IMG/VR virus record: IMGVR_UViG_2563366939_000004
Span: 1-24,834 of that record
Strand: one strand, 5' to 3'
Length of the DNA stretch: 24,834 nt
Source of the DNA: a virus
Taxonomy: Duplodnaviria > Heunggongvirae > Uroviricota > Caudoviricetes
The stretch's first letter is position 1. The number at the start of each line of letters is the position of its first letter. Positions 6,372 through 20,758 of this stretch are shown piece after piece. The translations under genes and the position numbers were made by a program. The notes below the pieces were generated by a model that ran no database searches, was not told the DNA's origin, and worked only from the letters and a program-made list of their open reading frames with translations.

Positions 6372-6446
<75 letters not shown>

Positions 6447-6449
6447 ATA

Positions 6450-6525
<76 letters not shown>

Positions 6526-8307: not shown

Positions 8308-8580
8308 TTCTCAATCTCTCGATGGCGCAGTGCAACAGATGCCAGTTGTTCAGGCTGACGTATAAAGTATAAATAAACTGGTTCCAGTGTAAAGCCCCCA
8401 CATTGATGGAATAAAAACCAAACAACAGATTGCTGGGATAAAAACAACGCTTATTATTAAAAGCGGTTAAACAAATTAAATTTTAATGTTATGCAAATCT
8501 GCCAGATCACCATAATATCTCATTTGAAAACCGCTGAAATAACAACCCTATCAGGATTAATCATATTAAGGTGAGTAAAT

Positions 8581-8667
8581 ATGGAAAACAACAAATCTGC
8601 ACATTACGTTCCTTTTTTATCTGTAATACTTTTTGTTTTATGCTGTGCGTGGGCATTATTTTTATAA
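8581..8667 (+). CDS. Putative 28-aa hydrophobic small protein (MENNKSAHYVPFLSVILFVLCCAWALFL)
   Basis: Strong SD (AAGGTGAG) 5 nt upstream of ATG; single predicted TM helix; below ORF-track size cutoff; convergent with hok. Confidence 0.35.
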   Translation: MENNKSAHYVPFLSVILFVLCCAWALFL

Positions 8668-8773
8668 AAATATTCACAGATAAAATATACCCGCCAAAGC
8701 AGGTTAAGTGCGGGTGCGTTGAGGATGCCTGACACATCAGAGGTGGCGAGGGATTTATCCCCCGCCAGGTCTC

Positions 8774-8929
8774 TTACTCCTCAGGTTCGTAAGCTGTGAA
8801 GACAGCGACCTCCGTCTGGCCGGTTCGGATTCGTACCTCACAGAGGTCTTTCCTCGTTACCAGTGCCGTCACTATGACGGTTAAACAGATGACGATCAGG
8901 GCGATTAACATCGCCTTTTGCTGCTTCAT
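8774..8929 (-). CDS. Hok-family type I toxin (51 aa)
   Basis: Hand translation gives MKQQKAMLIALIVICLTVIVTALVTRKDLCEVRIRTGQTEVAVFTAYEPEE, a Hok/Gef family sequence; missed by ORF track because under 60 aa. Confidence 0.85.
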   Translation of the reverse strand: MKQQKAMLIALIVICLTVIVTALVTRKDLCEVRIRTGQTEVAVFTAYEPEE

Positions 8930-9451
8930 AGCCTGCTTCTCCTTGACCTTTCGGTCCGTAAGAGGCTAATCTCTATGTGTCGCATAGATATGGCCTCAGA
9001 TTAATGTTAAACGTCTTGCAGGACGCGTAATGTTAACTGGGGCTTTTCTCTATCTACCTTTGGTGTTCATGCCCGAGGCAGATAGCCTCAAGCACCCACA
9101 GCAATTCTAACTATCCAATACATCACTGCCAACACTTTAAACTCTTACCCTTTAAAACAAGAACAAAATTCAACCAATCAGCATTGGGCGTATACTCATA
9201 TCCTAGAGAAAACAACTCTTTCTGTACTATTTATATCCATATGATTTATAAGCATTTGCCACTTGCCATAGCCGCACAATGACAGTTTGCCATTTGATGT
9301 CAATAGATAAAAATGATCGTTTTCAATGAGTTACATACTTGCAAGGCGTTGCACATCAGGCCCGATTACGTCAGTATCAAAAGATTACAGATGGTGCATT
9401 ACTGCCACCTCGCCTTAATGTTCCAGAACTCTCCAACTTGAGGAATTTTCA

Positions 9452-10225
9452 ATGACATCCTTTCAATTATCTTTGATTTCTCGTGAAATTGACGGCGAAA
9501 TAATACATTTACGTGCCAAAGATGGTTACATAAACGCCACATCAATGTGTAGAACTGCGGGCAAACTGCTCTCTGATTACACTAGACTCAAAACTACTCA
9601 AGAGTTTTTTGACGAATTATCACGCGATATGGGAATTCCCATATCGGAGTTAATTCAATCATTTAAAGGTGGAAGACCTGAAAACCAAGGGACATGGGTG
9701 CATCCTGACATCGCTATTAATCTAGCGCAGTGGCTATCGCCCAAATTTGCAGTCCAGGTTTCAAGATGGGTTCGTGAATGGATGTCAGGGGAAAGAACTA
9801 CAGCAGAAATGCCTGTACATTTAAAACGGTACATGGTTAATCGTAGTAGAATTCCTCACACGCACTTTTCTATTCTTAATGAACTGACATTCAACTTGGT
9901 TGCACCTCTTGAACAAGCAGGGTACACACTCCCAGAAAAAATGGTTCCTGACATTTCACAAGGAAGAGTATTTTCACAATGGTTAAGAGATAATAGAAAC
10001 ATAGAACCCAAAACATTCCCTACCTATGACCATGAATATCCCGATGGTCGCGTATACCCTGCAAGGCTGTACCCAAATGAATATTTAGCAGATTTCAAAG
10101 AACATTTTAACAATATTTGGTTGCCGCAATATGCCCCGAAATACTTCGCTGACCGGGACAAAAAGGCTCTCGCCTTGATTGAAAAAATTATGCTACCTAA
10201 CCTCGATGGCAATGAACAGTTCTAA
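9452..10225 (+). CDS. KilA-N domain protein with uncharacterised C-terminal domain (257 aa)
   Basis: N-terminal KilA-N/APSES-like region (IDGEIIHLRAKDGYINATSMCRTAGK...WVHPDIAINLAQWLSPKFAVQVSRWV); GAGGA RBS; opposite strand to neighbours; AT-rich flanks. Confidence 0.65.
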   Translation: MTSFQLSLISREIDGEIIHLRAKDGYINATSMCRTAGKLLSDYTRLKTTQEFFDELSRDMGIPISELIQSFKGGRPENQGTWVHPDIAINLAQWLSPKFAVQVSRWVREWMSGERTTAEMPVHLKRYMVNRSRIPHTHFSILNELTFNLVAPLEQAGYTLPEKMVPDISQGRVFSQWLRDNRNIEPKTFPTYDHEYPDGRVYPARLYPNEYLADFKEHFNNIWLPQYAPKYFADRDKKALALIEKIMLPNLDGNEQF

Positions 10226-20326: not shown

Positions 20327-20382
20327 TTCAGTCTGGCGGTGTAATGCACCGCCAACTTGAAATATTTTTTATGAGAAAAATT

Positions 20383-20577
20383 ATGAGATATGACAATGTT
20401 AAACCATGTCCATTTTGTGGTTGTCCATCAGTAACGGTGAAAGCCATTTCAGGATATTACCGAGCGAAGTGTAACGGATGCGAATCCCGAACCGGTTATG
20501 GTGGAAGTGAAAAAGAAGCACTCGAAAGATGGAATAAACGAACCACTGGAAATAATAATGGAGGTGTTCATGTATAA
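20383..20577 (+). CDS. ralR: RalR (Lar), restriction-alleviation protein / type I TA toxin
   Basis: 64 aa MRYDNVKPCPFCGCPSVTVKAISGYYRAKCNGCESRTGYGG... Confidence 0.85.
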   Translation: MRYDNVKPCPFCGCPSVTVKAISGYYRAKCNGCESRTGYGGSEKEALERWNKRTTGNNNGGVHV

Positions 20578-20758
20578 AATTACCGCCACTATTGAAAAGG
20601 AAGGTGGCACTCCTACTAACTGGACAAGATATTCAAAATCTAAACTAACGAAATCAGAATGCGAAAAAATGCTCTCAGGTAAAAAAGAAGCAGCCGTTTC
20701 CAGAGAGCAGAAAGTAAAACTGATAAATTTTAATTGCGAGAGACTTCAGTCCTCGTGA
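20570..20758 (+). CDS. rcbA: YdaC/RcbA small protein (62 aa from ATG 20570)
   Basis: GGAGGTG RBS; start overlaps ralR stop; synteny between ralR and xisR. Confidence 0.6.
   Translation: MYKITATIEKEGGTPTNWTRYSKSKLTKSECEKMLSGKKEAAVSREQKVKLINFNCERLQSS

Follow-up and report, generated by a model that had tools for sequence, protein, structure and literature searches.

Does the nin-like region of this prophage hold an intact type I toxin–antitoxin system, or the remains of one? The window (the whole stretch of DNA analysed, 24,834 nucleotides of IMG/VR record IMGVR_UViG_2563366939_000004) had been given a Hok/Sok-type locus in a first-pass annotation made from the sequence alone. That annotation placed the locus at 8774–9060, called the copy apparently undisrupted, and expected an overlapping mok frame and an antisense RNA in the leader. 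Our analysis agrees on the type of locus: Hok is recognized by Pfam and PHROG, the leader by Rfam RF01794, and the individual elements could be mapped. We consider it highly probable, from sequence, modelled folds and analogy with known systems, that the window carries a structurally complete hokD-type hok/mok/sok cassette of a Rac-like lambdoid prophage, for which a mechanism can be proposed.

The hok reading frame and its prophage setting

The window is a Rac-like lambdoid prophage that covers 87 per cent of Escherichia phage vB_EcoS-683R6 at 96.6 per cent identity and also matches Rac-SA53. The hok locus lies in a nin-like region, as first proposed, between a KilA-N gene and a group of DUF1367, YbcO and DUF1133 genes (coordinates in Table 1). 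Two tRNA genes, tRNA-Gly(TCC) and tRNA-Thr(TGT), are found at 6372–6525 on the minus strand, between the Q-like gene and the lysis genes. The prophage also carries a second type I toxin–antitoxin system at 20344–20754. It consists of the RalA antitoxin sRNA (20576–20754, minus strand; Rfam RF02694, 220.4 bits against a gathering score of 170) and an adjoining Lar/RalR restriction-alleviation ORF (20344–20577, plus strand; Pfam Lar_restr_allev, E 5e-14).

Lowering the ORF cutoff to 20 aa brings up a minus-strand reading frame from the ATG at 8929 to the TAA at 8776–8774, which encodes a protein of 51 aa followed by a stop codon. Its translation is MKQQKAMLIALIVICLTVIVTALVTRKDLCEVRIRTGQTEVAVFTAYEPEE. 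The frame was missing from the earlier ORF track because of the 60-aa cutoff used there, and the hidden 51-aa toxin of the first reading is thus real. The protein matches Pfam HOK_GEF (PF01848) over profile positions 1–42 of 42 (82.9 bits, cutoff 22, E 1.2e-23) and PHROG 251, ‘MokW-like host killing’ (E 2.8e-33). These two matches show that the ORF is not a chance one. It is identical to K-12 HokD (RelF) at 51/51 residues and to HokW of phage 933W at 47/51. The named Hok models of NCBIfam scored below their cutoffs (NF007279, 48.5 bits versus 73; the HokA equivalog NF007290, 40.2 versus 89), and both are models of other Hok subtypes. Near-identical E. coli loci are labelled ‘hokD: type I toxin-antitoxin system toxin HokD’ by the NCBI pipeline, which also gives the HokD name to proteins identical to the window Hok. 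A sequence search of the PDB returned no solved structure of any Hok relative.

Codon 47 of hok is TAC (Tyr) and is followed by G, which gives a UACG motif (8791–8788, minus strand) that is kept in 67/67 relatives. A recent preprint describes A-to-I editing by TadA that turns a Tyr codon into Cys in hokB, and similarly in hokC, hokD and hokE; the edited Cys enables a disulfide that raises toxicity (bioRxiv 10.1101/2025.08.07.668861). A 58-aa ORF downstream of hok (8561..8737) overlaps fbi and the terminator and was not taken as a gene.

Table 1. Features of the hok/mok/sok locus and of the neighbouring genes (window coordinates).
Feature	Position	Strand	Details
hok promoter	9132-9104	minus	-35 TTGGCA 9132-9127, 17-nt spacer, -10 TAGAAT 9109-9104
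Full-length hok mRNA, ~415 nt	9097..8680	minus	5' end ~9097 inferred
tac (translational activator)	9097-9086	minus	GGGTGCTTGAGG
ucb (anti-Shine-Dalgarno of mok)	~9045-9039	minus	AAGCCCC
mok Shine-Dalgarno	8997-8994	minus	GAGG, 8 nt before ATG 8985
mok leader ORF	ATG 8985 to TGA 8928-8926	minus	19 codons, MRHIEISLLRTERSRRSRL
dcb box	8966-8960	minus	GCCTCTT
hok Shine-Dalgarno	8944-8939	minus	AAGGAG
hok (hokD) coding sequence	8929-8774	minus	51 aa + stop
fbi (fold-back inhibition)	8724-8712	minus	CCTCAACGCACCC; complementary to tac, one bulged C
hok intrinsic terminator	stem 8704-8689, region to 8680	minus	stem followed by ATATTTTATC; terminator scan
sok promoter (putative)	8943-8972	plus	-35 TTGACC 8943-8948, 18-nt spacer, -10 TAATCT 8967-8972
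Sok RNA (predicted), ~69 nt	8979-9047	plus	ends carried over from 933W sokW by alignment
KilA-N gene	9452-10225	plus	divergent from hok
DUF1367 gene	8307-7708	minus	downstream of hok
YbcO/DUF1364 gene	7708-7418	minus	downstream of hok
DUF1133/antiterminator-Q-like gene	7541-6879	minus	downstream of hok

Cassette elements and predicted RNA folds

Judged by sequence, the cassette lacks nothing that the hok/sok model of plasmid R1 calls for: a hok promoter and a putative sok promoter, tac, ucb, mok and hok with their Shine-Dalgarno sequences, dcb, fbi and terminators. The copy is undisrupted in this respect, as had been suspected. The interval of 8774–9060 proved too narrow at both ends, since the leader extends to 9097 and is preceded by the hok promoter, and fbi and the terminator lie below 8774. 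The whole locus thus spans about 8680–9132.

The hok promoter was the sole sigma-70-like site reported by a consensus scan of 8600–9300 (10/12 matches), and it lies 7 nt ahead of the first position of the Rfam leader model. The 5' end of the mRNA was set from this model start together with the conserved tac sequence. The leader itself matches RF01794 at 9097..8927 over the full model (positions 1–157; 101.5 bits, gathering score 59, E 1.4e-23). RF01794 carries the name ‘sok antitoxin’; its alignment here is to the strand that codes for hok and stops at the hok AUG. The match thus marks the leader of the hok mRNA and not the Sok transcript, and a strand call taken from RF01794 would place Sok on the wrong strand. 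A second Rfam match in the region, to the snoRNA ceN48, was dismissed as chance (21.8 bits versus 70, E 0.17). At the other end of the transcript, the hok terminator of the window has an interrupted T-run; in most relatives the T-run is longer, with a single G interrupting it.

A plus-strand Sok of about 65 nt had been expected in the leader. Its elements do occur at the homologous positions, with a predicted length closer to 69 nt. The 933W record annotates sokW as an antisense RNA of 71 nt covering the mokW start. The window Sok is predicted to begin with a single-stranded 5' tail of ~13 nt that covers the mok start and to continue as a long terminator hairpin followed by a U-run (-27.3 kcal/mol, z -4.76). 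Its stem has ~16 extra nt compared with the Rfam consensus. The Sok-target hairpin in the mRNA has a 5-nt loop, CGACA, without U. A YUNR U-turn motif is reportedly present in the Sok-target loop of R1; the window loop, which lacks U, does not have it.

We placed the putative sok promoter by homology, at the position implied by the annotated 5' end of sokW in 933W. The hexamer TTGACC that had been pointed out as -35-like is indeed on the plus strand, one position further along than reported (8943 and not 8942). The consensus sigma-70 scan did not report this promoter, which fell below its threshold, and its -10 (TAATCT) matches the consensus at 3/6 positions. In the alignment with 933W, however, the -10 implied for the sokW promoter (TAACCT) is no nearer to consensus, and the activity of the sokW promoter has been demonstrated (PMC8621323).

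We predicted folds for three forms of the hok mRNA; these are thermodynamic predictions, and the 3' processing site is assumed. The full-length mRNA (415 nt) has a minimum-energy fold of -173.7 kcal/mol (z -9.45 against shuffled sequences) in which the 5' and 3' ends pair. In this fold tac and fbi form a 12-bp helix (9097–9086 with 8724–8712), ucb binds the mok Shine-Dalgarno, and dcb sequesters that of hok. When the last 45 nt at the 3' end are left out, tac is predicted to pair with ucb and the mok Shine-Dalgarno with dcb, the hok Shine-Dalgarno is unpaired, and a hairpin presents the mok start. In the first 38 nt, as a stand-in for the nascent RNA, tac pairs with the adjoining downstream sequence (-19 kcal/mol, z -3.7). 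Three states described for the R1 hok mRNA (nascent, full-length and 3'-shortened; PMC9841398) match these folds. As models, then, the predicted folds reproduce the published R1 refolding switch.

The elements and their pairings are also conserved among relatives. At least 575 loci that encode close relatives turned up in a scan of viral contigs; 80 of these were kept, all with a Hok identical to that of the window. Together with the window and K-12 hokD this gives 82 classified leaders, and 78 of them are full leaders. The remaining four are K-12 hokD, two K-12-type relE junctions and one rearranged copy. We aligned the 67 distinct full-length mRNAs (95 per cent mean column identity) and imposed the window fold on them. 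In this alignment 95.9 per cent of cells are paired, against ~40 per cent when the partners are slid by 1–3 columns, though this fraction is inflated, since the structure comes from one of the aligned mRNAs. Double (compensatory) changes occur in 8 pairs, against 2.5 expected from shuffles, and the hok terminator stem shows compensatory changes among the relatives. The tac/fbi helix and the helix of dcb with the hok Shine-Dalgarno are 100 per cent paired in the 67 mRNAs. Since tac and fbi are nearly invariant, the support for their helix is conservation and not covariation.

The mechanism that we propose follows by homology from plasmid R1 hok/sok and from prophage hokW/sokW. The hok promoter would give rise to a stable mRNA of ~415 nt. 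While nascent, this RNA would be silenced by a metastable hairpin at its 5' end; once complete, it would be silenced by pairing of its tac and fbi ends, with the mok Shine-Dalgarno held by ucb and that of hok by dcb. Slow trimming from the 3' end would then remove fbi, tac would switch to ucb, and the mok start region would become the Sok-target hairpin. As long as the prophage is present and transcribed, the unstable ~69-nt Sok would pair across the mok start region, which would block mok translation and lead to cleavage by RNase III. With Sok gone, ribosomes would translate the 19-codon mok through the hok Shine-Dalgarno, stop at the UGA/AUG overlap and initiate Hok, a 51-aa inner-membrane peptide that would kill or lyse the cell. 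For the window locus we infer the transcription of both RNAs, the toxicity of Hok, the coupling of the two frames and the biological role from what is known of these other systems.

Known relatives and the possible role in the prophage

The first-pass annotation had implied that the locus was new, which is not supported. Near-identical loci are already annotated as hokD, and a 91-per-cent-identical locus in 933W is both annotated and characterized (PMC8621323). This relative, hokW/mokW/sokW of 933W/Sp5 (AF125520), is prophage-borne too and has 91.3 per cent nucleotide identity to the window over 95 per cent of the locus; its record annotates mokW, hokW and sokW. The sequences of tac, ucb, the Sok stem, dcb, the hok Shine-Dalgarno and fbi are the same in both. 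The differences are in the first mok codons and the Sok 5' tail (CTGAACACATGTAGG in 933W versus CGACACATAGAGA in the window), in the sok -35 (TTGCCT versus TTGACC) and in four C-terminal residues of Hok, and 933W lacks the terminator sequence found in the window. In addition, mokW has 70 codons and is in frame with hokW, starting 57 nt upstream of it (an offset of 57), whereas the window mok has 19 codons and an offset of 56. The 933W locus lies elsewhere in its phage genome, near the right end and beside genes of the tail-fibre region; the position of the locus is thus not conserved.

In 2021, hokW–sokW of Sp5 was demonstrated to be a working type I toxin–antitoxin system (PMC8621323). HokW is toxic, and SokW neutralizes it in a manner that depends on RNase III and Hfq. 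SokW is lost after treatment with mitomycin C, HokW is made RecA-dependently, and the system raises the release of Sp5 phage about two-fold (PMC8621323).

By analogy, the benefit of the cassette to the window prophage is likely addiction, help with lysis on induction as for hokW–sokW, or both. A reading that we take seriously without favouring it is that the cassette works but that its main role is something other than addiction, either earlier damage to the membrane with improved release of progeny on induction or the abortive exclusion of superinfecting phages. The hok/sok system of R1 has reportedly been found to exclude phage T4. The rough doubling of phage release by the 91-per-cent-identical hokW–sokW points in this direction (PMC8621323), as do the placement of the window locus ahead of the Q-like gene, in the nin-like region of the early-to-late transition, and an approximately four-fold enrichment of hok genes in prophages (bioRxiv 10.1101/2025.08.07.668861). 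The same preprint reports no enrichment of hok near defence systems, however, and the locus sits elsewhere in the 933W genome. The sequence itself distinguishes none of these roles.

The K-12 gene hokD (relF, in the Qin prophage) encodes an identical Hok and is likewise in a lambdoid nin-like region. It has 97.6 per cent nucleotide identity to the window at 8943..8689, from the hok Shine-Dalgarno through the terminator. The homology stops at 8943, and the hok promoter, tac, ucb, the Sok gene, the mok start and dcb are replaced by relB-relE in K-12. Because K-12 hokD matches only this part, it is the window that has the gene in complete form and K-12 that has it truncated.

By its Rfam match and its predicted folds, the window locus shares with hok/mok/sok of plasmid R1 (parB) the tac/fbi closure and the ucb/dcb switch, together with a leader ORF probably coupled to hok and a predicted short antisense RNA that covers the start of mok. 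R1 differs in that the locus is plasmid-borne, mok starts at an offset of 58 and runs for 70 codons in the +1 frame, and Sok is 64 nt long. A further K-12 relative, hokC (gef)/mokC/sokC, has 75.9 per cent nucleotide identity over 352 nt including the leader. It is chromosomal and not prophage-borne, with IS186 directly downstream in K-12. Its mokC, of 69 aa, has the offset of 57 that most hokD-type alleles have and so shares the frame of hokC, which the window mok does not. Toxicity and its neutralization have been demonstrated for R1 hok/sok (PMC9841398), and Hok homologues of every localization tested were toxic on expression (bioRxiv 10.1101/2025.08.07.668861).

Of 5426 complete E. coli genomes, 4721 have a match of some kind to the 601-nt locus. 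Cassettes of the hokD type with 88–89 per cent identity also occur on non-mobilizable plasmids of ~79–109 kb from E. coli, Salmonella, Klebsiella and Enterobacter, and in a phage P1 record, which suggests that such cassettes are carried by P1-like phage-plasmids. A record labelled Actinobacillus pleuropneumoniae phage vB_Apl-pPE4 (PP818812.1) has the locus at 94.5 per cent identity and matches 28 per cent of the window at 92.5 per cent. This is unexpectedly E. coli-like for a phage of Pasteurellaceae, and its host assignment or possible contamination is perhaps worth checking.

The short mok allele

The feature that sets the window apart is its mok. The frame starts at an offset of 56 from the hok start and ends after 19 codons in a UGA that overlaps the hok AUG (AUGA). 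The overlapping mok predicted earlier is present, but it does not overlap the hok coding sequence beyond the start codon. In the alignment to 933W, its ATG falls on the start codon annotated for mokW. Our sample contains 17 leader alleles, of which 16 have an offset of 57 and a 70-codon mok in frame with hok; the window allele alone has an offset of 56. It is the second commonest, with 9/67 distinct mRNAs. In R1 and in K-12 mokB, mok starts 58 nt upstream of hok and so is in the +1 frame. An offset of 57, as in K-12 mokC and 933W mokW, puts mok in frame and makes it a 69–70-aa, N-terminally extended Hok. In the sampled alleles other than the window's, and in mokW and mokC, a 70-aa Mok–Hok fusion would also be possible.

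A disrupted mok frame had been named beforehand as a sign of decay. The window mok is short, at only 19 codons, but the part upstream of the hok start is intact, and R1 mutagenesis described in section 18 of PMC9841398 found only that part of mok to be needed. The required part is thus retained. The 57 nt that lead from the mok Shine-Dalgarno to that of hok have an exact match in 811/5426 complete E. coli genomes (~15 per cent), and 784 E. coli records have this stretch at 99 per cent identity or more, with nearly all copies chromosomal. For these loci the NCBI pipeline annotates the hokD coding sequence only, and nothing beneath the mok/Sok segment. With the required upstream part kept and the allele in hundreds of genomes, we rejected decay as the main reading of the short mok, which we take to be a common variant, either tolerated or functional. 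Being one base out of register with the 16 other sampled alleles, it could be a tolerated frameshift and not a selected design.

Variation among the 67 mRNAs clusters where mok starts and the 5' tail of Sok lies (8971–8995, alignment columns 106–131); the 17 alleles found there have a median of 7 differences in 19 columns. The Sok stem that adjoins this stretch hardly varies, and neither do tac and the hok coding sequence. Such variation might diversify the specificity of Sok. The sample includes two pairs of prophages from the same genome; the Sok-target alleles differ in one pair and are identical in the other. One could read the window locus as a distinct natural hokD-type allele, with its 19-codon mok giving Hok only by termination and reinitiation, and the variation of the Sok tail as the outcome of selection against cross-reaction between prophages in the same cell. 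We consider this reading less likely than not.

It is improbable that the locus is intact in sequence but silent. On that view it would be decaying and carried along, as the chromosomal hok loci of K-12 are: the shifted mok and a weak sok or hok promoter would keep Hok from ever being made, and the cassette would persist through the spread of the prophage. The short mok at offset 56 against 70 codons at offset 57 in the 16 other alleles, a sok -10 missed by the scan, the interrupted terminator T-run and earlier work in which intact chromosomal hokA, hokB and hokC gave no post-segregational killing (cited in bioRxiv 10.1101/2025.08.07.668861) would all fit it. Against it, every element is present with the predicted refolding switch preserved, the Hok protein is unchanged, Hok homologues of every localization tested were toxic, the 19 codons correspond precisely to what R1 requires of mok, and the allele recurs in those 784 E. 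coli genome records. We retain the structurally complete hokD-type cassette as our reading.

The finding is correct but ordinary: this version is found in ~15 per cent of complete E. coli genomes, and there is experimental work on a close relative. The cassette is already known, as a textbook type I toxin–antitoxin system of which a near-identical prophage copy has been studied, and it has little significance beyond correct annotation. For annotation, it is a case in which small-ORF and antisense-RNA features (hok, mok and sok) are lost at a 60-aa ORF cutoff. For the hok family, the window copy shows what would be the complete ancestor of the truncated K-12 hokD.
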